Below, piece by piece: positions 525-13,755 of a DNA stretch of 13,947 nt. Every line of letters begins with the position of its first letter. Positions within the stretch are counted from its first letter, which is position 1. Source of the stretch: Candidatus Iainarchaeum sp. GTDB taxonomy: Archaea > Iainarchaeota > Iainarchaeia > Iainarchaeales > GCA-2688035. A program made the position numbers and the translations under genes. The notes below the pieces were generated by a model. That model was not told the DNA's origin, ran no database searches, and saw only the letters and a list, made by a program, of their open reading frames with translations. The stretch covers positions 1 to 13,947 of the forward strand of contig JAQTNI010000035.1 of NCBI GenBank assembly GCA_028713935.1. Reading direction: 5' to 3'.

Positions 525-1493
525 ATGCCGAGAAGAAGACCACAGTATAGTATTCCTGGGCAAGCTGCCGATTTTAATGTACTGGGCAGCAGATATAACA
601 TACGCAGGCGGCCAGACGAGATTTTTGTAGAAGGCAGGAGAGTTCGCAGGAGAGAAATCAATGTAAGAGGCGGGCAAACCCATATCCATGTACATACTGG
701 AAGGCCAAGGAGAAGAAGGGAAGCTGCAACACCGCAGATTGATTTTGAAGCAAGGCGCAGGGAAATTGACGATGCAATCGGAAAAAGGGCAAGGCAAATT
801 GCGCTTTTGGCAAATATGCCTGCCAGGACTTTTGAAGAAGCCGCAGAGAGAGAACAGGCAATACATGCAGGCACAGGCAGAAAAGTCCTGACAAAAATTG
901 TTGATTTTCAAGGGGAACAAAGGCTTATAACGGAAAAGGCAACTGCAAGGGCAAATGAAAAAATTTCCGGCCTTGAAAGGCGCTTTGGAAGGCAGTTGAA
1001 TACAGCGGAAAAAGCAGCTGTTCTGAATGGCGAGCTTAAAAAAGTCAGGGAAAGCTTAATGGCAAATGATTTGAGAAGCAAGGCTCATCCGATAAGAGGC
1101 ACAATTGGATTAAAACAGTCCAATCCCCTGAATGTTGGGAAAGCCTGGTTTTTGCATCCGATTAAAACAATTGAAAAATTGCTGATTACTCCTGCGGCAT
1201 TGAGAAAACAGGGAATTGGAAGGCAAAGCAAAAGAGGGCAAATAAAATCCTTTCGCAAAGATGCAACAAGAAAATCCGGGGCTTTTGCTGAAATTGGCGG
1301 GGAAACAAGGGCAATTGGAATTTTTACGCAGTATAGGGGAAGAGTACTGGATGCTTTTGATGAATTTCGGAGAACAGGAAATAATGTTGTTTTTGAAAGG
1401 GCTGTAAAGGATGCTGAAAACTGGGCACAGTCCCAGATTTCCGGTGAAGGCAGCTTAATGTCAGATTACAGGACCAGAAGAAAGGCCGCATAA
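525..1493 (+). CDS. Hypothetical protein, 322 aa, with an Arg-rich N-terminal ~70 aa followed by a helical charged region; no family recognised
   Basis: Long ORF with a purine-rich coding strand like the other genes here. The overlapping minus-strand ORFs (410-874, 498-920, 658-894) are Cys/Leu/Phe-rich antisense-type translations. The N-terminus MPRRRPQYSIPGQAADFNVLGSRYNIRRRPDEIF is paralogous to the C-terminal half of the upstream ORF. Confidence 0.6.
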   Translation: MPRRRPQYSIPGQAADFNVLGSRYNIRRRPDEIFVEGRRVRRREINVRGGQTHIHVHTGRPRRRREAATPQIDFEARRREIDDAIGKRARQIALLANMPARTFEEAAEREQAIHAGTGRKVLTKIVDFQGEQRLITEKATARANEKISGLERRFGRQLNTAEKAAVLNGELKKVRESLMANDLRSKAHPIRGTIGLKQSNPLNVGKAWFLHPIKTIEKLLITPAALRKQGIGRQSKRGQIKSFRKDATRKSGAFAEIGGETRAIGIFTQYRGRVLDAFDEFRRTGNNVVFERAVKDAENWAQSQISGEGSLMSDYRTRRKAA

Positions 1494-1504: not shown

Positions 1505-2158
1505 TCAGGCAATCCTGATTTTTGTTTTGCTTCCTTCTTTGAGGGAAAATTTTTTTCTCAGGAAAACAGGCGAAATTATTTCAATTGTGTTTTTTTGGTG
1601 CTTTGTGCGTTCAGGAATAATTATTGCGCCGTTGGCATTGAAAATTTTTATTTTGAATGCTTTGAGGTTTCCGAAGCTTCTTTCTTTTGTTGAAAATCCT
1701 TCAATAAAAATTGGCTTTGAATTTAAAAGGAATTTTTCAAGTTTTTCCTGTTCAACAACAATGTTCAAAGTGCCCAAATAAGGCCTGAAGCCAAGCAATT
1801 TTTTGAATTGTCCAAGGTAAGGTTCCTGCGAAACATAGTACCTGCCTTCGCCAAAGCCAAGTGAAACCTTGCCTTCAAGTTCCCTTGTTTTTCCTTTTGA
1901 AAAAAATTTTTTTAATTCAAAAAAATGTTCCCTTGCAAGCGCAATTCCTTTTTCAGTAAGGGAAATTTCGCATCCTTGAGGGGAAGAAGCAAGAGTAATC
2001 AAGCCCTGTTCTTTCAAGGAGCGGAGTTTTCTTGAAACAGTCTGCTGTGAAACTTCAAGTTCTTCGGAAATTTTTCCCGTGCTTGTTTTTATTGAACTGA
2101 AAAGGCCTGTTTTTTTTGCGAGAAACAAAAGCAAAAAAAAATCTCCCTGTTTCTTCAA
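1505..2158 (-). CDS. rbkR: RbkR-type bifunctional protein: N-terminal winged-HTH regulator fused to a CTP-dependent riboflavin kinase (MJ0056/RibK family)
   Basis: The C-terminal half is GKVSLGFGEGRYYVSQEPYLGQFKKLLGFRPYLGTLNIVV...GAIIIPERTKHQKNTIEIISPVFLRKKF. It aligns by eye with MJ0056 motifs (GLGEGRYF, GFEPYEGTLN, VPKKTYH..IEIIAP..LR). The N-terminus ISEELEVSQQTVSRKLRSLKEQGLI is a typical wHTH recognition region. The start is TTG at 2158; there is no in-frame ATG nearby. Confidence 0.9.
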   Translation of the reverse strand: MKKQGDFFLLLFLAKKTGLFSSIKTSTGKISEELEVSQQTVSRKLRSLKEQGLITLASSPQGCEISLTEKGIALAREHFFELKKFFSKGKTRELEGKVSLGFGEGRYYVSQEPYLGQFKKLLGFRPYLGTLNIVVEQEKLEKFLLNSKPIFIEGFSTKERSFGNLKAFKIKIFNANGAIIIPERTKHQKNTIEIISPVFLRKKFSLKEGSKTKIRIA

Positions 2159-2205: not shown

Positions 2206-5200
2206 TTATTTTGCCCTGTGCTTTTTTTCAGCCCTTAACCTGAACATGAATATTGTGCAGAGCAAAAGCGAAAGAAATACAAGCATTGCAATTCCTTCTG
2301 GCAAAGAAGGCAGGTTGAATGGCATTCCGCTGCCTCCCCCGACATTCACTGTCAAAGGATTTCCGCCTGGAACCTGTGAAACTTTTCCATCAGCGCCAAC
2401 AGCAGTGCTGAAGCCTTTCTGCCTGAAGGCCTCGTCAAGCGGTATTAGCTGGGCATTTTCAGGATACCAATTGCCTGTTGAAGGGTCATACCAGAAGCTT
2501 CCATTGGGGCCAGTTGCAGTCTTGAGAATTTCATTTGGCTGCTTGTTATAGGAAATAACAGGGGCACCGTTTTCAGCTCCAAAATCAAGGGTATGGGTTT
2601 GCCCATCGGCAGTAGTGAATTTTATTCCAGTGGGAGTTTTTTCTATTGCGCCGTTAATTGGCTGGTCATAAACTTCTCCAGTTTGCTTGTTAATCATTTT
2701 GAAATACGGTTTGCAAACCCCGTTTTCAAGCTTGGAGTAAAAGATGTACCTGTGGGTGTCAGTGTCAAAAACCTGGAAAGGCCCCATTTTTTGCATTGAT
2801 GCATTGAAATTGTCAACTTTTGCGGCAATTGCATCGCTGCCTGACTTCGGGATTGCTTCAAGGTTAATGGCAGGCTCTTCACATTGTGTTTCAGGATTTT
2901 TTACTGTTGTTGGAGTTGCAATCAAGCCTTCAACATCGTTCTGATTCAAAATCGCCTTGTCATGCCTTTTCAGCCAGATAAGCAATTCGTTTGTTTCTGC
3001 CTTGTAAACAATTACTCCCTGTTCAAACTGGATCGACTCCATTTTTCCGACTCTTGCAAGACCCTTGCCGCCCGCATTGCCTGACAATTCAATGTCCCTG
3101 CTTGCATTTATTGAGGCGGCTGCACTGTCACCATAAACAATTTCCCTTGGGATGCCTTCAGCAGTGATTGTCTTGCTTAATTCATCGGCAACAATGCTTG
3201 GATGGGTGTCAGAAACAATTGATTTTACTTTTCCGAATGCATCGCTTAAATTCTGGCTGTTCAGCTTCACACCTGTCTGCTCTTCAACTCCCTGTTTAAT
3301 GCAATTCAAAATGCTTTGCCCTACAGGGGAGGTGGTATCAACAAGCAATTCGGAATTTATTCCCATCTGGAAAATTCTGTCTGTAGAACCGGAAGGCAAA
3401 ACAATTTTTGTCATTCTCTGGGGAATTTCCCAGGCAGGAATGTTTCCGTTAGGCGCAGCCAATCTTACCTGGTCAGGAGTTGTTATTACCGGCTTTCCGT
3501 CAAAAGAAATCTCTCCTTTTGCATTGTCAATTTTCAGTTCAGTGCCATTGTCAGTGTCCTTAATCAGTGCCTTGCTTGTTTTGTCATATTTTGAGGCATT
3601 CTGCTCTCCCTTGTACCACAAGAAAAACAATTGCTTGCCTTCAAAATTTCCCGTTGTATAATTTTTTGCATCAACTTTTGCCTGCAAAACAGATTTTGCA
3701 TTTGCCTTGTCGGCAAGCTGCTGTGTTTCCTCTTTTACCTTGTCTTTTACAACATCAACAAAAGTCTTTGACTTGTCATCAGGATTAGAAGGGCCGAGAA
3801 CGCTGCCTGTCAGGTTTTTGAAAATGTCAGTGGCTTTTTCAGAGCCAAGCTGATTTGGAGTCTCGGCTTTTTTTTCCTGTTCTTTTGCAGGCGCAAAAAT
3901 ATGTATGTAATACCCTTCCACATCATCAACACAGTCCTGGAATTCTGGTGCAATCAAAATCTGCTGCATTGCAGAGCCGAAAATTCCTGGCCAGCCGAAA
4001 ACAAAGTAACCCATTGTTTCGCCGAAAGAAAGGAAAGCCCCTATTCTCTGTGGCTTGCCATCAACAATTTTTCCAAAAGAGCCGACAATTGGAATTTTTT
4101 CCAAAGCATCTTTGCAGGTTTTCTTGTCATTCTGCGCCTGCACCAAATCCAATTTTGTATCCCCTGCATCTGATTTTTCAGGGCCTGTCCAGTCAATATT
4201 TGTGTGGTGCGCAAAAGAAATAAGAGTAGAGCCTTTTTCCTTTGCATCATCAGAGATAACATCTTCAAGCAGTATGCTGCTTAATCCTTCCCTTGTTTTC
4301 AGGGAAATTCCTGCAGTGCCAATTCCTGTTTCTGGATTAACTCCTTTTGGGGCATAATTCCAGCTGCAGGTTTTGCATTCATCGCCTGTCTGGGAAAACA
4401 ATGCAACATTTTCAACATTCGACCTATAACCTGCAGGGCCTTTTCCAGTAATATAATTAAATTTTTCTTCAAGTGGCTTGTATTGCTCTGTTGCCTTGTT
4501 CAAAATCATTTTCCATGGCAAAACATTTAAAACCTGGGCAAACAAATCGCCTTCATCGCTTCCTTCGTTTGCAAAAAAATCCATGAAAGCATCATTGTAC
4601 AATTTTGTTTCTCCAAGGGAAAGCTGGGCTGCTCTCCAGGAATCAGGCAACTGGTAAGCAGACAATCCTTCAAAGCCAACTCCTCTTTTCAGGCCCCAGT
4701 AAACAAAAGGCATTACTGTCCATTTTGTGCCTCCTTTCAATGAAAAATAACTTTTTAAAATTTCTTCTTCCTGTGCCATTGCCTTGTCAAGCAAAGACAA
4801 ATACCTGCGGTTCTGGCCTGCCCAGCCTTTTTCAATCAATGCATTGTACAGCCTGTCTGCATGGAGATTCATGTTTCCCATAATCCTGCTTTTCACCCTG
4901 TATCTAGTGAATCTTGCTGCCCAGTCTTCAGGAGTCATGTCAATTTCAGGCTTCCATCCAAGGTCATAAACCCTTATTTCCCCTGTAGGAGTGCCGCTTT
5001 TCAGGATATGCCCAACAGAAGTGGAGTCAAGCTTTATGAATTCACCATTTTCAAGCTGGATCATTTTGTCCTGGAACCTTGAAAAGTGCTTTTCAACATC
5101 CTCTACTGTATAAGAACCCAAAAATTTTCCAGTCGGGTCTGGCTTGTACATTTTCAAAAATCCATCAGGAGTTGTTTCAAAAATCCTTGCATAGTCTCCC

Positions 5201-6846
5201 CCGGGAGGGCTGGCTTCCCAATTTGCCCAGGTTCCGTCCCTTTCAAATTTTGCCATTATTCCGTTTATATTGGCAGAGTCTTCAGTCAGGGTAATCATTG
5301 TGCCTGTTTTTGCATCCTTAACAGCCATATTATATATGCCGGCTGCCTCGTCCTTTGCCCAGAATTCAGGATAATCCAGCCTTGTCACCCTGTCCATGTC
5401 TCTCATCAGCCTTGAAGTTTTTTGGCCATAGTCAATTAATGCTGATTTTCCTTCAATGCTGTCCATTCCATATTTTTCAACTATCTTGGCGTATTCACCG
5501 GAATAATCATCTATCAAGGCACTGTTTGTTTTTGCAAAGCTTCTCCATTCTTTTATAAGCTTGAAAAATTCTCCCCGCCTTACAGGGTCTGTTATTTCAG
5601 TGTCAAGCTTTCCGCCTGCCTTGAGCCAGTCATCCAAAAGCCTTCTTGTGCTGCCGCCTTTTATCATTTGATAGCCTTCCTGCCAGCCAGTTCCTTCCCA
5701 TAAAATTTTTCTGTACTCCCCAAAGCCGAACTTGTCAATACGCGCAGCAGTATTGGCAGCCCTTGCATCCCCAAGCAGAGAGCCTGTTGTCATAAAATTT
5801 TTTCTGAATGCCTTGACAAAAGAATTGTTAGACAAGTCCCAGGGCCAGCCTCTTCTCCCCAAATAACCAAGATATCTTTTTGCCTGTCCAAGCAAGGTTG
5901 GGCCAAAATTGCTTATCACCATTTCAGAAGAAAACCAGGAATTAAAATATTTGTCAAAAGCACTGTAACTGCTGATTGTGCAGTCAGCTGTCTGGCAAGT
6001 AGAGCCGATTTCAGCGCCAAAAGACTGGGTCTTAATGCTGTTTTTAATTGGATTTCCTGGAACTCTTGAAACCTGTTTATAAGTTACTTTTTCAGGGTCT
6101 GTTTCAGAAGCCAAGGCAGTCTTGATTTGCTCTGTTTCCTTGTCAGTATAAGTATCCTCCACATCAGGCCCAATTCCAACCCAGTCTTTCAAATCATTCC
6201 AGACATTCTTGAAATCCTGTGTTATTCCTTCTCCGCTGTTCCTGAATTCTAACTGCCTGTCAATCATTGGGCAGGAATTCTGGTTCTTGTCCAATTGAGA
6301 CTGCAAATCTTCACATCTTCCAATTCTCAAAGTATCGTCAAGGGAAATTCCAACTGCAAAAGGCCCCTGGCTTGACTTGTTAAACAAAAAAGGGGCTTCT
6401 CCGGGATTAAATTTTAAGTCAGGCAACGTGTTCAGGAAAGCCTCATTGCCATTCCCTGTTGGGAGAACTATTTTTGAATTTTCAAGCTTGTCCCTGTCAG
6501 CAGGCTCGGTTTTTTTTGCATCAGGCGCTTCAATTGCTTTTCCAGTAAAAGGCTTTGCATTTAATTCGTCAAGGCTTTGCACTGCCTGTTTCAGCTTTGC
6601 AATCTCGCCTGGAAGCAAAACAGTTTCTCCAGGCAAAGTGTTTGAAGGATTTTTGCAGGCAAACTCAGTGAGTTTTCCGGTGTCATTTGTTGCAGGAGGA
6701 GTTGCGGGCTCAGAAGGCGGAACTGTTGTGCCATCAGTGCCGGTCCCTGTATCTGAAGCGCCTGTTTCTGCAAAAGCAAAACTGCTGTTTAAGATAAGCG
6801 CAATCAGCAGAATGCTAAAAAAATCAGCTAACTTGTTTTGCTTCAT
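2206..6846 (-). CDS. Giant (1546 aa) secreted, C-terminally membrane-anchored surface protein; candidate S-layer protein or adhesin, family unknown
   Basis: Uninterrupted 4.6-kb ORF. The ATG at 6846 gives MKQNKLADFFSILLIALILNSSFAFA|ETGAS, a Sec-type signal peptide with an AxA site. A Thr/Pro/Gly-rich linker follows. The ectodomain has 12 Cys and many N-x-S/T sequons. The C-terminus is LPSLPEG + IAMLVFLSLLLCTIFMF + RLRAEKKHRAK (motif, TM helix, basic tail). The track start at 6852 is a TTG two codons upstream. Confidence 0.9.
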   Translation of the reverse strand: MKQNKLADFFSILLIALILNSSFAFAETGASDTGTGTDGTTVPPSEPATPPATNDTGKLTEFACKNPSNTLPGETVLLPGEIAKLKQAVQSLDELNAKPFTGKAIEAPDAKKTEPADRDKLENSKIVLPTGNGNEAFLNTLPDLKFNPGEAPFLFNKSSQGPFAVGISLDDTLRIGRCEDLQSQLDKNQNSCPMIDRQLEFRNSGEGITQDFKNVWNDLKDWVGIGPDVEDTYTDKETEQIKTALASETDPEKVTYKQVSRVPGNPIKNSIKTQSFGAEIGSTCQTADCTISSYSAFDKYFNSWFSSEMVISNFGPTLLGQAKRYLGYLGRRGWPWDLSNNSFVKAFRKNFMTTGSLLGDARAANTAARIDKFGFGEYRKILWEGTGWQEGYQMIKGGSTRRLLDDWLKAGGKLDTEITDPVRRGEFFKLIKEWRSFAKTNSALIDDYSGEYAKIVEKYGMDSIEGKSALIDYGQKTSRLMRDMDRVTRLDYPEFWAKDEAAGIYNMAVKDAKTGTMITLTEDSANINGIMAKFERDGTWANWEASPPGGDYARIFETTPDGFLKMYKPDPTGKFLGSYTVEDVEKHFSRFQDKMIQLENGEFIKLDSTSVGHILKSGTPTGEIRVYDLGWKPEIDMTPEDWAARFTRYRVKSRIMGNMNLHADRLYNALIEKGWAGQNRRYLSLLDKAMAQEEEILKSYFSLKGGTKWTVMPFVYWGLKRGVGFEGLSAYQLPDSWRAAQLSLGETKLYNDAFMDFFANEGSDEGDLFAQVLNVLPWKMILNKATEQYKPLEEKFNYITGKGPAGYRSNVENVALFSQTGDECKTCSWNYAPKGVNPETGIGTAGISLKTREGLSSILLEDVISDDAKEKGSTLISFAHHTNIDWTGPEKSDAGDTKLDLVQAQNDKKTCKDALEKIPIVGSFGKIVDGKPQRIGAFLSFGETMGYFVFGWPGIFGSAMQQILIAPEFQDCVDDVEGYYIHIFAPAKEQEKKAETPNQLGSEKATDIFKNLTGSVLGPSNPDDKSKTFVDVVKDKVKEETQQLADKANAKSVLQAKVDAKNYTTGNFEGKQLFFLWYKGEQNASKYDKTSKALIKDTDNGTELKIDNAKGEISFDGKPVITTPDQVRLAAPNGNIPAWEIPQRMTKIVLPSGSTDRIFQMGINSELLVDTTSPVGQSILNCIKQGVEEQTGVKLNSQNLSDAFGKVKSIVSDTHPSIVADELSKTITAEGIPREIVYGDSAAASINASRDIELSGNAGGKGLARVGKMESIQFEQGVIVYKAETNELLIWLKRHDKAILNQNDVEGLIATPTTVKNPETQCEEPAINLEAIPKSGSDAIAAKVDNFNASMQKMGPFQVFDTDTHRYIFYSKLENGVCKPYFKMINKQTGEVYDQPINGAIEKTPTGIKFTTADGQTHTLDFGAENGAPVISYNKQPNEILKTATGPNGSFWYDPSTGNWYPENAQLIPLDEAFRQKGFSTAVGADGKVSQVPGGNPLTVNVGGGSGMPFNLPSLPEGIAMLVFLSLLLCTIFMFRLRAEKKHRAK

Positions 6847-6853
6847 ATCCAAC

Positions 6854-7387
6854 TTAACCCCAATATAACAGGAAAACTATTCCGTTTATTATCCATGGAA
6901 ACACGAAAAGTATTATTATTGTTACCAAGAGGCCTGTGCAATAGGCAATAACAAAATTTTTTGCCAATTGCGGAAACTTTTTTTCTTTGAGCTTGTCAGA
7001 AGCGAATTCCGCAAAAAATTCAAGTGGCAGCACTATTATTGTAAGGATAAGCGCATTGACAAGGATTTTCAGGATTGTGAGAAAAATAGCGACTGCAATG
7101 TCAGCGGGAGTTATTGCAAGCATGCCTGGCGGTATTTGCTTTGCAAGAATGCTTTCTGAAAAGCCAAGGTAATAGGGAAAGACGTATAGAAAAATTAATA
7201 TTATTGTTACTGCCAAATATGTTGCAATCAGCGCGCTTTGAATCCAGTTCAGGCTGAATTTTTTTACAAGCCAGTTTTTGAAGAAAAGCGCTGGAATTGA
7301 AACTAAAAAAAGAGGAATTGCAATTATAAGGGCAATCCTGAGCAAATCAATTATGCCGAGTGCAATTGATAAAACATCAAGGGCCAT
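6854..7387 (-). CDS. Polytopic membrane protein (177 aa, about 5 TM helices), unknown family; likely co-transcribed with the giant surface protein gene
   Basis: ATG at 7385-7387. The sequence has long hydrophobic stretches separated by short charged loops. Its TAA at 6854-6856 lies only 7 nt before the ATG of the giant gene. Confidence 0.8.
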   Translation of the reverse strand: MALDVLSIALGIIDLLRIALIIAIPLFLVSIPALFFKNWLVKKFSLNWIQSALIATYLAVTIILIFLYVFPYYLGFSESILAKQIPPGMLAITPADIAVAIFLTILKILVNALILTIIVLPLEFFAEFASDKLKEKKFPQLAKNFVIAYCTGLLVTIIILFVFPWIINGIVFLLYWG

Positions 7388-7410
7388 GAGTTAATTTAAA
7401 GTTGGAACTA

Positions 7411-7419
7411 ATATAAAAA
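7411..7419 (-). promoter_or_regulatory. TATA-box-like element TTTTTATAT, 24-32 nt upstream of the ATG at 7387 (leaderless or short-leader transcript)
   Basis: The + strand reads atataaaaa at 7411-7419. The position fits the archaeal TATA box, centred about 27 nt upstream of the transcription start. It lies in a 79-nt, very AT-rich divergent intergenic region. Confidence 0.4.
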
Positions 7420-7508
7420 GATTATTAAATCAAAAAAAATATACATTACTGGCAATTTGCTGAAATTTGGGGAATGGTGGATTTTTGGCAGAAGAAATTC
7501 CAAGAAGA

Positions 7509-8294
7509 ATGAAGCGCTTTTACAGGAAACCCGAAACAGAAGAAGCTGCTTTCGGGAATTATGACAGCACTGAAACAAGGGAACCTGTGCAGAAAGCTGA
7601 AAAAAAAGACATCAAAGACCTTATTCTGGAAGACATCAATGCACAGGAAAAAAAAAGCCCAAAAGCAATGGAAATAGCAGTGGGGCAGGTAAGCGAATTC
7701 AAGGCAAAACACAACAGGCTGCCAAGCCCGGACGAATATGACCAGATAGCGGAAAATATTTTTGGGCAGTTAAAAGAAAAAGAAGAATCCCAAAAATTTT
7801 CTGAAGCAAAAGGCAGGGAAATAAAAAGAATCCCAACAATTGCACAGGGAAACCAACAGGCAGCAGAACAGCCTTCACAGCAGGCCCAGAGAAGAGGCAG
7901 GACAAAAGCAGAAAGAATGGCTGCAAAAACAGGCACTGGCTTTGAAGAAGGGCAGCAGGCAGCACAGGAAAGTTCCCTGAACCAAAGCGAATTGAAAAAA
8001 CTTGAAATAAAGGATTTGCTGAAAGAAGATTCCGATGAATTAAAAGAATTTGAAGAAGGCAACGAAGAAGAAAATTCGGAATCTGAAGAATCAAAAGAAT
8101 TCAATCTTTCGGAATTGGGAAACGAAGAGGAAACAGGGGAAGAAAAATGCCCAAATTGCGGAAAAACAACTGAAGAAATAATTTTTTGCCCGGAATGCGG
8201 AAGCGCTTTCTGCGAACAATGCGCAAAAATCGAGAGAATAGGAAGCGAAAAAAAAATTGTCTGCCCAAAATGCGGAAAAACAACAAAAAAATAA
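7509..8294 (+). CDS. Acidic, low-complexity protein with a C-terminal 4x CxxC (double zinc-ribbon-like) domain
   Basis: ORF in the track, which starts at TTG 7467; the first in-frame ATG is 7509. The middle region is Glu/Lys/Gln-rich and includes a repeated IKDL[IL].ED motif. The C-terminus is CPNC-x9-CPEC-x4-CEQC-x13-CPKC (8148-8291). The start codon is uncertain: a TATA-like AATATACA at about 7437-7444 would also fit a transcript starting near 7467. Confidence 0.75.
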   Translation: MKRFYRKPETEEAAFGNYDSTETREPVQKAEKKDIKDLILEDINAQEKKSPKAMEIAVGQVSEFKAKHNRLPSPDEYDQIAENIFGQLKEKEESQKFSEAKGREIKRIPTIAQGNQQAAEQPSQQAQRRGRTKAERMAAKTGTGFEEGQQAAQESSLNQSELKKLEIKDLLKEDSDELKEFEEGNEEENSESEESKEFNLSELGNEEETGEEKCPNCGKTTEEIIFCPECGSAFCEQCAKIERIGSEKKIVCPKCGKTTKK

Positions 8295-8627: not shown

Positions 8628-9476
8628 TTAACTGGTTGGAATTTTTTCCCATTCCCTGCCGCTTCTTTTCCATGAAGAACTGCACTGCAGCTCATTAAGC
8701 ACATCTTCAGGCACAACAGTTGAAACCCACATTGCCAAGTTCACCTGTGCTGCTTCCAGATTGTCATTGCCAGAGGAGTTTTGTGAAATAAGGCGTATCC
8801 AGCTTTCTGACTTTGAAACAGAGCCGACATTTGAAAGCAGGCCCTCAACCTTATGCACATTTGCAAGGCCGGAAGCAGGATAGCACAAAAAAATTACTTG
8901 TTCAGTATCCAAACATGCATTGCCCACCCAAACCATTGTTGGATTTGCAGTGCAATTAGCCTTATCCAAGTCATTGCTGGTTGTGCGGTGCAATGAAAAC
9001 AAAAGGAAAATAAGCCCTGCATTGCCTCCGGGAGTAATAGTGCCACTGCAGCCCGGATCAGTCGGGCTTATGCAGTCAGTGGTTGAGCCTCCTGAATTGT
9101 AAATGTAAAAAACATAATCATAATTATCCTGGACAGGTTCCATTATGCCCACAATATTGTTTGCCAAAAGCCCGGCAGTGCTGTTCAATTTTTGGTCATC
9201 TGCAAAATCCTCTTTTACCCTTGCAAGCAAATAATCAACTTCAGGTGTTTCTTCCAATGCCTGGCCTTCAATCCTGGGAGTGCTGCTTTTGAAAATTGTC
9301 TTGAAAGCAGAGGCGGCATATTCGGAGCCATACTGCCTTTTTATCTGTTCAACGACAGTATTCCCATAAGCATTGGAAATTAAAAAAAGCACAATGCACA
9401 AAGCTGAAACAATCATCAAAAAATAAAGCGAATCAGTGATTGCAGCCTGGCCCTTCTCATCAGAATTCAGCGCCAA
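8628..9476 (-). CDS. Class III signal peptide (type IV pilin-like) surface protein, 282 aa; last gene of the pilin-like operon
   Basis: The N-terminus LALNSDEKG|QAAITDSLYFLMIVSALCIVLFLI has a KGQ prepilin-type site followed by a hydrophobic helix. The TTG start at 9476 is preceded by GGTGGTGG and overlaps the upstream gene's stop by 10 nt. There are 6 Cys outside the helix. Confidence 0.75.
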   Translation of the reverse strand: MALNSDEKGQAAITDSLYFLMIVSALCIVLFLISNAYGNTVVEQIKRQYGSEYAASAFKTIFKSSTPRIEGQALEETPEVDYLLARVKEDFADDQKLNSTAGLLANNIVGIMEPVQDNYDYVFYIYNSGGSTTDCISPTDPGCSGTITPGGNAGLIFLLFSLHRTTSNDLDKANCTANPTMVWVGNACLDTEQVIFLCYPASGLANVHKVEGLLSNVGSVSKSESWIRLISQNSSGNDNLEAAQVNLAMWVSTVVPEDVLNELQCSSSWKRSGREWEKIPTS

Positions 9477-10153
9477 CTAACCACCACCAAAAGCATTGGC
9501 TTTACAAAAAACCTTTCCTCAAAAGCAATATTGCTGTTTTTCAAGGATTCCTTTTGAGAAAGCGGGTAAAACTTTCCTGCACTATCCTTCAAATAATCCC
9601 TTGCCAATGCAACGGGAAAAAAATTCACATTATAAAACTGCGGAACTGCCTCATCAGTGCCAATGTTTGAACAAAAAAACCTTTCATCTTCAGAAGTTGC
9701 CTCAATAGGCAGGAAAAAAATTGTTTTGTCGGAAAATTCTTTTCCATCAGGATTGAAGTGCTCTGCAGGCGAGCCAGCAAGGGAAGATGCGCCTGCAAGA
9801 GGATTTGAAGAAAGCTCAACAAGGCCGACAACAAATTTTATTCTTTTCACTCCGCTCTGTGCATTTGCACAGCTTTCCTTGAAACTGTCAAATCCTGCAA
9901 CATAAGAATTGCCCCTCATTATCGAAGCAAGGTCAAGGACATCTTTGCTGTCATCAAAAAACCTGTTTTTCTGGTCAAAAGCATTCCAGGCAAAAGTAAA
10001 GGAATAAAAGAAAATTATAAGGGCAAAAACAAGCGGAATTAAAGAAGGCAAATCATCCCCAATCGGGCCTAGAAAGCCTTTCGAAGCGCTCGCTGATGCT
10101 CGCTTTCGAAAGCCTTGGGAAATGCTTCGCAGAAAACCTTTATTTGATTTCAT
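9467..10153 (-). CDS. Pilin-like or N-terminally anchored surface protein, 228 aa, with an unusually long basic leader containing a duplicated KGFL motif
   Basis: ATG at 10153 forms an ATGA overlap with the upstream stop (10150-10153). The N-terminus is MKSNKGFLRSISQGFRKRASASASKGFLGPIGDDLPSLIPLVFALIIFFYSF. The mature part has 2 Cys. Confidence 0.7.
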   Translation of the reverse strand: MKSNKGFLRSISQGFRKRASASASKGFLGPIGDDLPSLIPLVFALIIFFYSFTFAWNAFDQKNRFFDDSKDVLDLASIMRGNSYVAGFDSFKESCANAQSGVKRIKFVVGLVELSSNPLAGASSLAGSPAEHFNPDGKEFSDKTIFFLPIEATSEDERFFCSNIGTDEAVPQFYNVNFFPVALARDYLKDSAGKFYPLSQKESLKNSNIAFEERFFVKPMLLVVVSWR

Positions 10154-10926
10154 TGCGAACCGCCGGTACAAGATTCACAACCTGGCCTGAAGCAGGATTT
10201 GGCAGGCGGGTCAACAGGAGGGCAGCCAGTGGTTGTTCCAATGGGATTGTTAATGCCTGGCAAACTGTCAAACACTCCGCCAGGAATGCAGAAGCAGCTT
10301 GAATCATGGGCTTCCACATTTGGAATGCAGCCGCTCTTGATTTTTACCCTTATATCCTGCATATTGCCATAACAAATATCGCTTGTAAAAGAACAGGAAA
10401 TTACATACACATAATTTTTTCCCTTGAAGGTTTCTTTAATCAGCATAAAAGAATTCTGCGGATTTGCAGCCTGGGGGTCAACTACAATTGAATTTTTTTG
10501 CTTTAAGGCGTCAATGCCGGTGGCATTATCATAACTCCATTCAAAAAGAATTATTTCAGCGTCAATGTCAATGCTTTTTGCAGCAATAATCCTGTTCTGC
10601 TCTCGCCTGTTCACAATTGAAAAAATCAGTGTATTATTTTCTCCTGAAACAGTTGTTTCGGGCTCCCTTGAAATTTTCATTGCATAAAAAAAATCCTTTG
10701 AACCCCCAAAATATTTTATTGCGGAAGGAATGTTAACAGGGGAAGAAAAGCAAAGCTTGTTTGAATTTGCAATTCCCAATGCCTGCTCTGCCTTTGCATT
10801 TACCATTTGGGTTGCTGAAGAAGCGACAAAAAAATCTGTCAAGCCGAACATAAAATAAGCCACTATTGCAAACAAAGCAGTGACTAAAATCAGGAGGTTC
10901 ATTTTGCTAAGGGCAAATGCAAGCAA
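10150..10926 (-). CDS. N-terminally anchored surface protein, 258 aa, with a Cys-rich C-terminal tail; unknown family
   Basis: The TTG at 10926 is preceded by GGGTGAT (SD-like). An alternative ATG at 10902 gives MNLLILVTALFAIVAYF. The protein has a single N-terminal hydrophobic helix and 10 Cys, concentrated in the last ~90 aa (...SCFCIPGG...GCPPVDPPAKSCFRPGCESCTGGSQ). Confidence 0.7.
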   Translation of the reverse strand: MLAFALSKMNLLILVTALFAIVAYFMFGLTDFFVASSATQMVNAKAEQALGIANSNKLCFSSPVNIPSAIKYFGGSKDFFYAMKISREPETTVSGENNTLIFSIVNRREQNRIIAAKSIDIDAEIILFEWSYDNATGIDALKQKNSIVVDPQAANPQNSFMLIKETFKGKNYVYVISCSFTSDICYGNMQDIRVKIKSGCIPNVEAHDSSCFCIPGGVFDSLPGINNPIGTTTGCPPVDPPAKSCFRPGCESCTGGSQ

Positions 10927-10930
10927 TCAA

Positions 10931-11497
10931 TCACCCTGCACATGAACCCGAGTCTTCCCTGCAATAAGCGCAGACAGTCGGAAAACTCGCGCTCGTTTCC
11001 TTGTTATTAAAATAAATCACTCCCCTTGGCACAATATCAACAAATTCTTCCAGCAAAATTTTTTTTTCAGAAGCCTGCAAGTCAGGGCAGTCAGGGGAAC
11101 TGAAAACAGTGTTGGGATTAATGTTCAGGCATTTTTTGAAATAAACCCCTTTCTTTGAATTTGAATATTCCAAAAGCCTGCAGATGCTTGCGCCAGAACT
11201 GCAGTAATCAGCGCAGACCTGCGGCCTTTCACTGTAACTAATTTTTATTGTTTCATCTTTTGGATCGTAACAATCGGCCCTGAAATCAAGGAATTGGGGG
11301 CTTTTCTGGTTAATTACAATTTCAAGCTTGGTTTTCAGGTCTTCTAATTTCTGCTCTGTCTGCTGGGAACATCTCTGCTCGTCAAGAGTTGTCATTGCCT
11401 TCAAGCCGATGAACAAAACAAAGCCCATTATAATAACTGCAATAAGCAGTTCAAAAGGCGCTTCTTCCTGCCCTTTCCTGCCCAAAAAGTGAAACAT
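10931..11497 (-). CDS. Class III signal peptide (type IV pilin-like) protein, 188 aa, Cys-rich
   Basis: ATG 11497 gives MFHFLGRKG|QEEAPFELLIAVIIMGFVLFIGL. This has the basic leader, KGQ site and hydrophobic helix with acidic residues near the N-terminus of the mature part. The ectodomain has 10 Cys and ends TVCAYCREDSGSCAG. Confidence 0.8.
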   Translation of the reverse strand: MFHFLGRKGQEEAPFELLIAVIIMGFVLFIGLKAMTTLDEQRCSQQTEQKLEDLKTKLEIVINQKSPQFLDFRADCYDPKDETIKISYSERPQVCADYCSSGASICRLLEYSNSKKGVYFKKCLNINPNTVFSSPDCPDLQASEKKILLEEFVDIVPRGVIYFNNKETSASFPTVCAYCREDSGSCAG

Positions 11498-11541
11498 AAA
11501 ACTACCCAAATGAAATTCAAAAAAATAATTAAAAATTCCGC

Positions 11542-11706
11542 TTAATTTGAGGTTGCGGGAGTTGTTTTTCTCACTAGCTTCTGGCTCTGCTGGAACATTG
11601 GCTTAATCACTGCAATCAGGGCAATTGCGGCAATCACCAGAATCAAAAGCATGTAAACAGAACTCCACTCGCTCTGCGCCTTTTCTTCAGCAAAAAAACC
11701 CTTCAT
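11542..11706 (-). CDS. Small (54 aa) class III signal peptide protein; candidate short major pilin and first gene of the operon
   Basis: ATG 11706 gives MKGFFAEEKA|QSEWSSVYMLLILVIAAIALIAVIKPMFQQSQKLVRKTTPATSN. The K[GA]Q-S-x-E + hydrophobic helix pattern resembles the short archaeal Class_III_signal-type pilins. A TATA-like box lies upstream. Confidence 0.7.
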   Translation of the reverse strand: MKGFFAEEKAQSEWSSVYMLLILVIAAIALIAVIKPMFQQSQKLVRKTTPATSN

Positions 11707-11736
11707 AACAAACCAATAACAAAAAGGCAAAACAAG

Positions 11737-11744
11737 TATTTAAA
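11737..11744 (-). promoter_or_regulatory. TATA-box-like TTTAAATA, 31-38 nt upstream of the small-pilin ATG; candidate promoter of the five-gene operon
   Basis: The + strand reads tatttaaa at 11737-11744, which gives TTTAAATA on the minus strand, preceded by the purine-rich AAAGGGCAG (BRE-like position). It lies in the 195-nt divergent intergenic region shared with hicB. Confidence 0.4.
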
Positions 11745-11872
11745 ACTGCCCTTTTCTTTTTTCTTTCTAAAAAAAATTGCCAATTTTTGCTCAAATCTGG
11801 ATAAGAATTTGTGTTCTTTGATTAAGCAGTGAGTTGTTGGCGGTGTTGTTCAACAAGGGTTTTAAATTGTTG

Positions 11873-11880
11873 TAATAAAA
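11873..11880 (+). promoter_or_regulatory. TATA-box-like TAATAAAA, 22-29 nt upstream of the hicB ATG (an alternative TTTAAATT lies at 11861-11868)
   Basis: The position is consistent with a leaderless or short-leader archaeal transcript starting near 11902. Confidence 0.3.
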
Positions 11881-11901
11881 GATAGGTATAGTGAAGCGCT
11901 T

Positions 11902-12174
11902 ATGAAAGAATATAAAAATGAATTTCCTGTTTCTTTGCCTGTAATGGTAAGCAGGGAGGGAAAATGGTTTGTTGCCTCCTGCCCGCTGTTAGATATTGCC
12001 ACTCAAGGAAAAACAGAGAAAGAGGTAAAAGAAAATATGGAAGAATTAATACAAGACTATTTTTCTGATCCCGATACTGTGAAACCAACTGCCAATCAAA
12101 TTTTGTCTTCTTCTGTTTCTTTAATAAATGTTCCTGTAAAAGGGGTTTCTTTGTGCCAAAGCTCCAGCCGTTAA
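11902..12174 (+). CDS. hicB: HicB-family antitoxin (UPF0150/HicB N-terminal domain only, 90 aa)
   Basis: FPVSLPVMVSREGKWFVASCPLLDIATQGKTEKEVKENMEELIQDYF matches the HicB pattern (xxVxxxxEdGxyxAxxPxLxGxxTQGxTxEEaxxNxxEai). It overlaps the hicA start by 22 nt. No RHH/HTH-type C-terminal domain is evident. Confidence 0.8.
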   Translation: MKEYKNEFPVSLPVMVSREGKWFVASCPLLDIATQGKTEKEVKENMEELIQDYFSDPDTVKPTANQILSSSVSLINVPVKGVSLCQSSSR

Positions 12175-12374
12175 AACAATCCAAAGTAATAAAAATTCTT
12201 GAATCAAACTGTTTTGTACAAGCGCGTTCAGGAAAACACATCACTTTCAAAAAGACTGATTCTCAAGGAAAAGTTTTGACAACCTGGGTGCCACACCACA
12301 AAGAAGTCACTGTTTTTGTCATCAAATACATTATTCGGCAAACAGGAAAACCAAAAGAAGAATTCCAAGAATAG
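12153..12374 (+). CDS. hicA: HicA-family mRNA interferase toxin (73 aa)
   Basis: The GTG start is preceded by AAGGGG 9 nt upstream. (M)PKLQPLKQSKVIKILESNCFVQARSGKHITFKK...VPHHKEVTVFVIKYIIRQTGKPKEEF matches the HicA/YcfA pattern (MPKLPxxSxxExIKxLxxxGFxxxRxxGSHxxF...VPxHxxKELxxGTLxxILKQAGIxxEEF), including the conserved His of G-x-H. Confidence 0.85.
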   Translation: MPKLQPLKQSKVIKILESNCFVQARSGKHITFKKTDSQGKVLTTWVPHHKEVTVFVIKYIIRQTGKPKEEFQE

Positions 12375-12393
12375 TTGCTTATATGAACCTGCA

Positions 12394-12534
12394 TTAGTGT
12401 GAAGCCGCCTTAATTCTGCCTGCTTGAATATCTTCCAAACTGGATTCTAACTGGCACAAAATGTCATCGGCAAAATCCGCTTTTTTCTTCAAATAATCAT
12501 ACTCGCTTTTTGCAATAGTAACAGTTTCGGCCAT
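12394..12534 (-). CDS. Small 46-aa ORF not in the track (under 60 aa): MAETVTIAKSEYDYLKKKADFADDILCQLESSLEDIQAGRIKAASH; antitoxin-like helical protein, tentative
   Basis: I translated this by hand: ATG at 12532-12534 and TAA at 12394-12396, giving 47 codons. A TTTTTATATT box (12567-12576, minus strand) lies 33-42 nt upstream. The x(T/I)TIxxxEYxxL...DIxxGR pattern recalls small Phd/RelB-type antitoxins, but this rests on recollection only. Confidence 0.4.
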   Translation of the reverse strand: MAETVTIAKSEYDYLKKKADFADDILCQLESSLEDIQAGRIKAASH

Positions 12535-12662
12535 AAAAAATCACTAAAAATAATTATGCCCAAAAGAATATAAAAAACAATGTTCTGCTCTTTTCGCAGG
12601 GCAATAATCAAAAAAATAAGAAAAAGGAAGGGAAAAAATCAAGCCTTCAAAAAAATAATTTT

Positions 12663-13226
12663 TTAAACTGCCTTTTTGACTGCAATTACACAGCAGGTTT
12701 CTGTATAACTGGAGTTTACACAGCTGCAATCAGACCAGCTTACATTCGGCATTTTTTCTGAGCCAAGCTCAGGGTCATACCTTTCAAAATAATCCTCGCC
12801 ATTGACGCCGTCAGCCATTTTTTTGCCGACATCGCAGATTGCATGCAGAACAACTGTTTTTGCAGCAGTTCCGTTATAAGTAACCCTGACCATATTTGCT
12901 GTTTCCCAATTGTCCTGTCCCTCAAAGTCACCTGCTGAAACACAAATTCCGTCCTCGGAAACAATTCCACCGCTGCCTTCCGCAATTCCACTGCTGTTAA
13001 TTGAAGTCCCGTTTTTAAAAGTCACTTTTTTGCTCGTTGAAGGAGTGGTTTTTTTTGTTGCAATGTCCCTTATAATTGTCTGGCCTTCTTTTCCGGGATC
13101 GTTTTCGCCAATCACTCCAATTTGCCCGATTATGGAAAGAAGCAAAGTCAGAATCACTACTGCAACAACAGCCGCAATAAGCAATTTGAATACGTCAAAA
13201 GCCTGTCCTTTTTCATTAAAAAACAT
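12663..13226 (-). CDS. Class III signal peptide (type IV pilin-like) protein, 187 aa
   Basis: ATG 13226 is preceded by GGTGGTGA 4 nt upstream. The N-terminus is MFFNEKG|QAFDVFKLLIAAVVAVVILTLLLSII. A Gly/Ser/Thr-rich ectodomain carries 6 Cys. Its N-terminus is paralogous to that of the upstream gene. Confidence 0.85.
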   Translation of the reverse strand: MFFNEKGQAFDVFKLLIAAVVAVVILTLLLSIIGQIGVIGENDPGKEGQTIIRDIATKKTTPSTSKKVTFKNGTSINSSGIAEGSGGIVSEDGICVSAGDFEGQDNWETANMVRVTYNGTAAKTVVLHAICDVGKKMADGVNGEDYFERYDPELGSEKMPNVSWSDCSCVNSSYTETCCVIAVKKAV

Positions 13227-13296
13227 TTTCACCACCGCTTTAAAAAAATTCAATAATTTTACAATTATATAATTGGTTTCTAATATTTAAAGCTTC

Positions 13297-13755
13297 TCAT
13301 GGGTTTTTTTTGAGTTCTTTTCCAAAGGAAACAATGCAGTAAGGCCTGCAGTCAGGGTTTGGGAGATAGCTTTGAAAGCACTGGTAAAAAACATTTGAAA
13401 GGATTCCGGATCTTAATTCCAAAAACTGCCCTCCCTCCAAGGAAAAAGCCGATATTGATGATGACTGGAGTTCAATGCAGTCCCCGCCTATGCCGGCGCT
13501 TGCGGCAAGGCTTTTTGCTGAAAAAACCTGGCCTTTCTGGAAAGTCAGGTTTTTTCTTACAACAACTTCTCCATTGGGAGTTTGCACTGCATTGTCAAGG
13601 CCTTCTGCAAGAAGCTTTTTGCTGACATCAATTTTCCATGTTTCAAGGTAATTGATTATTGAAATAATTATTATGAGAATTGCAAGGCCGATTGCTGCGC
13701 CTATTAAAAGCTTGAAAACATCAAAAGCCTGTCCTTTGTTATTGCAAATTTTCAA
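13297..13755 (-). CDS. Class III signal peptide (type IV pilin-like) protein, 152 aa
   Basis: The TTG start at 13755 is preceded by GAGGGG. The N-terminus is (M)KICNNKG|QAFDVFKLLIGAAIGLAILIIIISII. The mature part has 4 Cys. There is no in-frame ATG near the 5' end. Confidence 0.8.
   Translation of the reverse strand: MKICNNKGQAFDVFKLLIGAAIGLAILIIIISIINYLETWKIDVSKKLLAEGLDNAVQTPNGEVVVRKNLTFQKGQVFSAKSLAASAGIGGDCIELQSSSISAFSLEGGQFLELRSGILSNVFYQCFQSYLPNPDCRPYCIVSFGKELKKNP

Follow-up and report, generated by a model that had tools for sequence, protein, structure and literature searches.

A giant surface protein and its duplicated membrane partner in the type IV pilus-like gene cluster of Iainarchaeota

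What does an archaeon of the Candidatus Iainarchaeum lineage do with a surface protein of 1546 residues, and why is the gene of a small membrane protein its immediate neighbour? The question is raised by contig JAQTNI010000035.1 (assembly GCA_028713935.1), whose 13,947 nt are referred to here, at full length, as the window. The genome belongs to the Iainarchaeota (Diapherotrites, DPANN), which are uncultured, as are most other DPANN archaea; how the surfaces of these cells are built and how they make contact with other cells is largely obscure. An earlier note on the window, made from its letters, proposed a giant surface protein co-transcribed with a dedicated membrane partner, and thought of an S-layer protein or adhesin with its anchoring or export factor. 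Our own answer, on which we would place an even bet, is that the two genes may constitute a lineage-specific surface module of a type IV pilus-like apparatus of the Iainarchaeota, with the giant tethered to the membrane and held there by a pseudo-dimeric partner. Functional statements in what follows derive from synteny, sequence features and AlphaFold2 (AF2) models built on a shallow alignment; positions are those of the whole window, except where the locus of a relative (L followed by a number) is named.

Both genes lie on the minus strand. The giant's open reading frame (ORF) occupies 2206-6846 (ATG at 6846, stop at 2206-2208) and encodes 1546 aa; the small gene (6854-7387) encodes 177 aa (19.9 kDa, isoelectric point (pI) 9.0). 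Seven nucleotides, gttggat (6847-6853), separate the TAA of the small gene from the ATG of the giant, and both frames and their junction stand as first described. The giant has 20 relatives in a collection of 5.8 billion proteins, at identities down to 31%. Those that are uncut have 1495-1635 aa, all are 'hypothetical', and the named ones come from Candidatus Iainarchaeum or Diapherotrites metagenome-assembled genomes (MAGs). A scan of species-representative genomes finds 147 stretches that match the giant, with full-length relatives in at least 80 genomes, none of them annotated; the best 80 of these 147 loci are almost all labelled Iainarchaeota and include the complete GW2011_AR10 and Ca. 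Iainarchaeum andersonii. At 83% identity, a deep-mine MAG supplies the closest relative. An exhaustive hidden Markov model (HMM) search of 1.84 billion cluster representatives (50% identity) returns 213 matches at E <= 1e-3, 123 of them at E <= 1e-30; the most divergent relatives have 1333-1659 aa, and some match the C-terminal domain alone. A second, word-indexed search with the family profile added no further homologues of the giant. A viral or mobile origin was considered and rejected: relatives of the giant are absent from IMG/VR contigs, and it has no PHROG match. Three loci with the complete module (L014, L015 and L065) go under the labels Chloroflexi, Thaumarchaeota and Falkowbacteria; these MAGs come from one common study, and the contigs are probably mis-binned pieces of Iainarchaeota.

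Synteny, linkage and the integrity of reading frames were followed through 83 loci, promoters and intergenic gaps through 58 non-redundant ones. Iterated HMM searches of all ORFs find a homologue of the small gene in 71 of the 83; in 11 of the 12 loci without a match, the giant is at a contig edge. About 60 loci have the small gene directly before the giant on the same strand, and where the giants are 47% and 31% identical to that of the window, the corresponding figures for the small proteins are 48% (E 6e-50) and 29% (E 6e-5). The dedicated partnership that the earlier note conjectured is thus a feature of the family. The pair has a fixed place, in turn, in a larger array. The order of genes across loci is T2SSE, an ~740-aa T2SSF-like gene, six to seven pilin-like genes, a divergently transcribed Zn-ribbon gene, the small gene and the giant, followed by an optional riboflavin kinase or SET gene and then, convergently, by PAC2, two T2SSF genes and T2SSE. 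In total this makes two secretion ATPases, three platform (T2SSF-like) genes and six to seven pilin-like genes. Pfam confirms T2SSE, T2SSF and PAC2; the match of the ~740-aa T2SSF-like protein is weak (E 2e-4). The pilin-like orthologues follow one another in identical order in 45-47 loci, with T2SSE and T2SSF genes flanking, and the same layout surrounds the most divergent relatives of the giant from the deep search. The window itself spans the segment from the first pilin-like gene through the riboflavin kinase. Proximity to a pilin-like locus had been taken as a hint of a common theme; the link is stronger than that, with the pair lying inside a phylum-wide type IV pilus (T4P) supercluster.

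The small partner is the simpler of the two proteins. It was initially taken to cross the membrane five times; there are four hydrophobic segments instead, in a tandem duplication of a unit with two transmembrane helices. Unit 1 (residues 1-88, 7124-7387) consists of TM1, a basic cytoplasmic loop (K37, K42, K43) and TM2, and unit 2 (residues 89-177, 6857-7123) of TM3, a second basic cytoplasmic loop (K132-K137) and TM4; from these loops the protein is predicted to be N-out/C-out. Aligning the N-terminal half to the C-terminal half with hhalign gives a probability of 96.4% (E 1.2e-9, 70 columns). In distant relatives, the gene just upstream of the giant encodes 82-84 aa only, the equivalent of unit 2: these short proteins, in L084, L086, L087 and L088, match the C-half HMM (E 2e-10 to 2e-8), and those of L084, L086 and L087 also match the N-half HMM (E 8e-7 to 2e-4), L088 matching the C-half HMM only. 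It follows that two copies of an ~85-aa two-helix hairpin are fused in tandem in the 177-aa protein, which makes it a pseudo-dimer. Its 70 distinct homologues have 167-202 aa (two truncated ORFs excepted), and only W48, plus G169 in a diverse subset, is conserved at 90% or more. No conserved polar or catalytic residue (Cys/Arg/His, or two Asp) was found among these homologues. Comparison by hhalign with T2SSF, archaeosortase, pilin, Zn-ribbon and PAC2 families gives probabilities of 1.2% at most, Pfam searches of 16 homologues at permissive thresholds yield no recurrent family, and NCBIfam and the PDB likewise provide no match. This is an orphan family. It was considered as a hidden T2SSF fragment, an archaeosortase, a pilin or a peptidase, each of which was rejected for lack of profile similarity or catalytic residues; the role in export that the earlier note contemplated finds no footing either, the protein being also unrelated to sortases.

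The giant's two ends argue that it is exported and anchored in the membrane, as was first proposed. Residues 1-26 (6769-6846) form a Sec-type signal peptide with an MKQNK start, a hydrophobic core and the cleavage motif AFA|E (A24-F25-A26|E27), called by inspection of its n, h and c regions rather than with a dedicated predictor and matched by a family consensus, SFxPAFA. Inspection finds no class III (pilin-type) signal peptide with its [KR]-[GA] motif on the giant. With a Sec signal instead, and an anchor at the C-terminus, the protein can be neither a subunit of the filament nor a tip adhesin that is primed like a pilin. Hydrophobicity reaches the transmembrane level in two segments only, the signal peptide and a helix at residues 1518-1535. 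The mature protein (~168 kDa, of which the ectodomain makes up ~164 kDa) is acidic, with a pI of 5.3. It begins with a low-complexity segment rich in Thr, Gly, Pro and Ser (residues 27-58, 6673-6768), of low conservation and variable length (homologues have insertions before residues 48 and 55), and modelled at predicted local distance difference test (pLDDT) values below 50. This is the Thr/Pro-rich region that had been interpreted as a stalk; the composition is as described, but its location at the mature N-terminus is not that of a stalk, and the membrane-proximal linker is a different, flexible Gly-rich segment (residues 1471-1508, 2323-2436, pLDDT <50).

Conservation and gap profiles divide what lies between. 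The N-terminal ectodomain region (residues 59-1000, 3847-6672) is mixed alpha/beta, contains nine of the 12 ectodomain cysteines and carries the invariant motifs YSxFDKYxNxW...PTLxG (294-320) and GSDxG (762-766). A variable, low-confidence linker (residues 1001-1089, 3580-3846), in which homologues have inserts averaging ~20 residues, connects it to a C-terminal beta-rich domain (residues 1090-1470, 2437-3579), the part of the superfamily that is best conserved and occurs most widely. The cysteine count of the earlier note is confirmed: there are 12 in the ectodomain, with one more in the anchor, and eight are invariant among 19 homologues; across relatives the giant has 8-16. Its impression that the protein has neither recognisable domains nor internal repeats also survives closer searching. 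Pfam and NCBIfam find no domain in the giant, nor is there a common Pfam match across the 19 homologues when these are scanned singly at permissive thresholds; no repeats are detectable at the profile level; PHROGs and PADLOC offer no family, and sequence-profile searches of the PDB no match, for the giant or the small protein.

Structure prediction does not supply a relative. In AF2 models built on an alignment of 18 sequences, the C-terminal part is beta-rich from residue ~1090 to ~1470, mostly at pLDDT >90, falls below 50 at residues 1471-1517 and ends in a helix; the N-terminal part has a mean pLDDT of 64 and a predicted template-modelling score (pTM) of 0.45, with an alpha-helix-rich core at ~345-675 that reaches pLDDT 80-92. 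Foldseek searches with both models against the PDB, and with the C-terminal part also against BFVD, give nothing at E <= 1e-3, and the best PDB match of the N-terminal part has an E of 0.16 and a TM-score below 0.2. Beta-propeller-like and helical-bundle matches to the giant were dismissed (TM-score <= 0.2).

Is the giant, then, the S-layer protein of the Iainarchaeota, forming a cell-covering lattice that is anchored by its C-terminal helix, with the small protein as a membrane socket? The signal peptide, acidic pI, large size, flexible membrane-proximal tether and C-terminal transmembrane anchor would all suit an S-layer protein, there is one copy of the giant per examined locus, and it is present phylum-wide; analogous anchored proteins of other T4P loci have, moreover, been called 'S-layer-like' (Makarova et al. 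2016, PMC4858521). The specific signatures of such proteins are nevertheless missing: PF05123, PF05124, TIGR01564 and TIGR01567 are unmatched by the giant of the window or by the 19 homologues (PF05123, TIGR01564 and TIGR01567 mark the S-layer protein of the related Micrarchaeota), there are no internal domain repeats, and neither sequence nor Foldseek gives a significant match to a solved structure. The N-glycosylation sequons, described as 'many' in the earlier note, number 11 in the ectodomain against an expectation of 10.3 ± 2.9 from 2000 shuffles; this is the chance level, and glycosylation potential is therefore not a distinguishing feature of the giant. Its 12 cysteines also speak against a class of proteins that is typically low in sulphur-containing residues (according to the Micrarchaeota S-layer paper).

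The rate of evolution bears on the same question. The giant's identities to its orthologues (83, 58, 46, 45 and 47%) can be set against those of the riboflavin kinase (80, 73, 51, 43 and 52%; eleven loci were compared). Alignments of the giant always cover 93-99%, and its conservation equals or exceeds that of the pilins and the small partner. By this measure it is a slowly evolving protein, like a housekeeping enzyme, under strong purifying selection over its full length. S-layer proteins usually diverge fast and adhesins are usually variable; the giant's rate fits a component of a machine better than a fast-evolving S-layer protein or a host-specific adhesin. The reading frame is single, intact and at least 1400 aa long in 71 of the 83 loci, while three have an in-frame stop and one a frameshift, and in the other eight a contig end truncates the gene. 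On these counts, with stops or frameshifts in only four of the 83, we reject a general pseudogenisation among relatives. The breaks themselves, three single stops (TAA, TAG, TAG) and one frameshift at L020 ~4212, L047 ~2608, L055 ~5990 and L075 ~10650-10790, could be sequencing errors, recent inactivations or sites of read-through. With conservation of this kind, and with the giant always inside a pilus cluster, we regard a cell-covering S-layer as unlikely. The alternative suggestion of an adhesin finds no support either: no domain of adhesin type is present, and the sequence is conserved where adhesins would usually vary. None of the outcomes that the earlier note named as refuting it is seen: the giant matches no characterised S-layer or enzyme family, keeps its link to the membrane gene, and is not in decay among its relatives.

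The C-terminus invites a further interpretation. The Gly-rich linker is followed by a juxtamembrane motif, PFNLPSLPE (residues 1509-1517, 2296-2322), in which F1510, N1511, P1513 and P1516 are invariant and of which the core, hydrophobic-x-[LI]-P-x-hydrophobic-[P/D/E], is kept in all divergent relatives. Then come the single transmembrane anchor (1518-1535) and a basic cytoplasmic tail (1536-1546, RLRAEKKHRAK), which together occupy 2209-2295 and are identified by hydrophobicity and AF2. Together the Leu-Pro (LP) motif, the hydrophobic helix and the basic residues after it could constitute a sorting signal for an archaeosortase-like enzyme, which would remove the helix and attach the protein to a new anchor, such as a lipid, as with PGF-CTERM and ArtA. 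Such processing can coexist with a role in the pilus or in an S-layer. The tripartite C-terminus is kept throughout the superfamily, and a gene of the archaeosortase/exosortase family (~190-220 aa; Pfam Exosortase_EpsH, E 9e-6), in whose product the Cys (SELCTG), Arg (RIF) and His (THN) are invariant, lies by the pilin block, inside the pilus cluster, at five loci (L003 985-1656, L007 ~4710-5321, L008, L013 and L056). Those five, out of 83, belong to one subclade, however, and the enzyme is absent from the loci of the window's closest relatives; the gene that is universally linked to the giant is that of the four-helix small protein, which has no conserved Cys/Arg/His and is unrelated to archaeosortases. 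No curated sorting-signal model fits the tail, NCBIfam at E up to 10 yielding a spurious exosortase P match only. Sorting signals usually mark several proteins per genome; the motif of the giant occurs in no other ORF of the 83 loci, bar one spurious ORF. We think cleavage and re-anchoring decidedly improbable.

Within the N-terminal region, a Gly/Phe-rich hydrophobic helical hairpin, RIGAFLSFGETMGYFVFGW-PG-IFGSAMQQILIAP (residues 934-967, 3946-4047), draws attention to the possibility of contact with another membrane. It is conserved, with E943, Y947 and Q962 invariant, and may be either a membrane-interacting element or a buried element of the core. If an episymbiont used the giant for host contact or to act on a membrane, pili would draw cells together and the Gly-zipper-like hairpin would enter the membrane of the partner, as part of a fusogen, a pore or a docking device. 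The DPANN lifestyle lends this some appeal by analogy, electron cryo-tomography having revealed envelope complexes of unassigned identity at host contacts in a related DPANN phylum (PMC11329633), and conservation extends less widely in the distal N-terminal region than in the domain next to the membrane. The hairpin's maximal Kyte-Doolittle hydrophobicity over 19 residues (1.26) is, on the other hand, under the transmembrane threshold, and its two helices are modelled at pLDDT 50-70 only. Foldseek finds no match to fusexins, class I-III fusogens or pore-forming toxins (nothing better than E 0.16; ClyA/SmhA-type folds at E >3 and TM-score <0.2), and high sequence conservation speaks against a determinant of host specificity. 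We give this idea very little credence. In a related and bolder form, giant and partner would be the core of a new envelope complex that is peculiar to the pilus-like machinery of the Iainarchaeota and related lineages, an oligomeric portal or docking structure for the filament or for a host-derived conduit, with the Gly-zipper hairpin contacting the membrane. That is a long shot; if true, it would identify in molecular terms the kind of barrel-shaped envelope complex that has been seen by cryo-tomography at DPANN-host contacts (PMC11329633), and it would define a new protein fold as well as a new class of type IV filament accessory.

Finally, the giant might be a surface-anchored enzyme, such as a hydrolase degrading polysaccharide or protein, that is in the pilus cluster by chance. 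Invariant Asp, Glu, His and Arg residues (GSDxG, D171/R174, H881, E861) could indeed form an active or metal-binding site, but no enzyme family is matched by sequence or fold, and the phylum-wide synteny with pilus genes and the dedicated non-enzymatic partner would be left unexplained. An enzyme is barely credible in this setting.

How might a surface module of the pilus-like apparatus, the reading that we prefer, be put together? The giant would be exported by the Sec pathway and then tethered through its C-terminal helix. The pseudo-dimeric partner is proposed to pack against this helix and the juxtamembrane motif, because the two genes are constantly adjacent and the partner has no catalytic signature; in the distant relatives this job would fall to a homodimer of the 83-aa unit. 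Packing may serve to stabilise the giant in the membrane or to position it beside the pilus platform. The conserved membrane-proximal beta-domain would work with the pilus machinery or the envelope, while the less widely conserved N-terminal region would face outward. The giant's role would be structural or mechanical, as a component of the envelope or the pilus base, rather than that of an enzyme or a variable adhesin. In this respect it appears comparable to the anchored, 'S-layer-like' proteins that have been predicted for other T4P loci of archaea. Several considerations weigh against such an arrangement. Synteny is the only link between partner and giant and between the pair and the pilus. 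The small gene is missing from L046 despite 1.8 kb of sequence upstream of the giant, and in L025, L028, L047 and L082 it is on the other strand, ~2.4-2.8 kb downstream, with the PAC2 gene between. The AF2 models come from 18 sequences only, and that of the N-terminal part is moderate (pTM 0.45). Some 1500 residues exceed the needs of a mere anchor or collar, so that an additional activity is likely.

The sequence around the two genes hints at how the pair may be expressed. The TATA-like box that the earlier note pointed out belongs to a conserved TTTATAYTAGTT element; the promoter element with its conserved flank, c-tt-TTTATATTAGTT (7406-7420, minus strand), includes tttatattagtt (7406-7417) and lies 30 nt before the ATG of the small gene. 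TTTATA(Y)TAGTT recurs at the same distance in most of the 58 loci. A TATA element ~30 nt from the start codon implies a leaderless or near-leaderless transcript. The gap between the stop of the small gene and the start of the giant ranges from -49 to +256 nt, is 30 nt or less in 26 of 58 loci, and in some of its longer versions holds a TATA-like box of its own. Co-transcription is therefore likely in the window, with its 7-nt junction, but is not fixed across the family. L004, the closest relative, carries three copies, at ~124-bp spacing (9736-9990), of a segment (ctactggggataaaattgaaaca) made up of the small gene's 3' end and the junction; this tandem duplication sets the start of the giant ~236 nt from the stop of the small gene, the native junction being as tight as that of the window.

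The remaining genes of the window fill in the surroundings. Six pilin-like genes, all on the minus strand, are at 8628-9476, 9467-10171, 10150-10926, 10931-11509, 12663-13253 and 13297-13755; several have class III-type N-termini of KGQ type, for example KGQAFDVFKLLI. Between the fourth and the fifth (11510-12662) there is ~0.8 kb of extra DNA of lower GC content (0.36-0.38), where L004 has a gap of ~330 nt. This segment holds no convincing ORF, Rfam family or tRNA (Rfam and tRNA scans of the entire window are empty) and could be the remnant of an insertion or a degraded pilin gene. Divergent from the small gene, on the plus strand (7467-8294), is the gene of a protein that is acidic, of low complexity and equipped with a double Zn ribbon at its C-terminus (Pfam Zn_ribbon_3/DZR, weak), found at the same position in 56 loci; the protein may act as a regulator or belong to the cytoplasmic side of the apparatus. 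In distant relatives the position is taken by a 404-734-aa protein, and the 713-aa membrane protein of L084 matches the Zn-ribbon profile. Downstream of the giant, the gene of a winged helix-turn-helix fused to a CTP-dependent riboflavin kinase, an archaeal marker (1505-2158, minus strand), is linked only in the window's subclade (19 loci). A 322-aa ORF without family match (525-1493, plus strand) is likewise restricted to that subclade (14 loci) and is poorly conserved, with 43% identity even in the closest relative.

Farther out in the supercluster, a PAC2-family (PF09754) gene ends the convergent T2SSE-T2SSF-T2SSF operon in 62 loci (as in L001, 15265-15996), a position that suggests an unrecognised cytoplasmic component of the pilus system. 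The T2SSE ATPase of L086 (1-1943) contains an intein (Intein_splicing + LAGLIDADG), and the second T2SSE of L085 is fused to 4Fe-4S ferredoxin domains.

What was one more 'hypothetical protein' becomes, in this analysis, a defined module: an orphan of ~165 kDa containing a confidently modelled domain that is unmatched in the PDB, a dedicated partner and a fixed position in a gene cluster. The module can serve as a marker of a pilus-like apparatus in metagenomes, and it extends to the DPANN the prediction that archaeal pilus loci encode anchored surface proteins of their own. Whether S-layer, pilus portal or host-contact device, each, if true, would fill a gap in the biology of the archaeal cell envelope. 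Our search of the literature found no description of the giant and small protein families, only the general precedent of T4P loci and an unrelated Micrarchaeota S-layer protein. An anchored surface protein within an archaeal T4P locus has, as a kind, been predicted before; new are the phylum-wide orphan family with no detectable fold relative, its duplicated two-helix partner, the juxtamembrane motif and the fixed place in the supercluster.

The nearest precedent is in the survey by Makarova et al. (2016), in which archaeal T4P loci are described that encode a large Cys-containing 'S-layer-like' protein with one C-terminal transmembrane helix, plus another large component (PMC4858521). Such 'S-layer-like' proteins, for example those of arCOG05471 from Thermoproteales (clades 4B and 4E; PMC4858521), resemble the giant in their genomic setting, where a secretion ATPase and TadC/T2SSF platform proteins are encoded with several pilins, another large component and extra membrane proteins. 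They are like it, too, in having conserved cysteines, a signal peptide and one C-terminal transmembrane anchor. The giant differs in coming from the DPANN, a lineage that the survey omits, in being much larger, and in having an obligate partner made of duplicated two-helix units and an LP-type juxtamembrane motif. It has no detectable relation to Pfam or NCBIfam families; arCOG05471, itself a prediction, is compared here by its description.

The likeness to archaeal S-layer glycoproteins, such as csg of Haloferax volcanii with its PGF-CTERM or SLP_Mh of Micrarchaeota with PF05123/TIGR01564, is that of exported, acidic, very large proteins with a C-terminal tether reached through a flexible linker; tetrabrachion of Staphylothermus is a further archaeal S-layer protein of this type. 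The giant departs from them in lacking S-layer domains and repeated modules, in its unenriched sequons, many cysteines and slow evolution, and in belonging to a pilus cluster. Substrates of sortases, exosortases and archaeosortases (LPXTG, PEP-CTERM, PGF-CTERM, IPTL-CTERM) resemble it in the sequence of Pro-containing motif, hydrophobic helix (18 residues in the giant) and basic tail; unlike theirs, its motif fits no curated model and marks a single protein in the DNA examined, and its constant neighbour is no sortase.

Type IV filaments have non-pilin accessories through which the filament is joined to the envelope or a target: FlaF and FlaG of the archaellum, which contact the S-layer, TadG and RcpC of the Tad pilus, and PilY1-type adhesins. 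The giant is like these in being a surface or envelope component, not part of the filament, that is encoded with pilus genes; it differs in having no homology to any of them and in being anchored by a C-terminal rather than an N-terminal helix.

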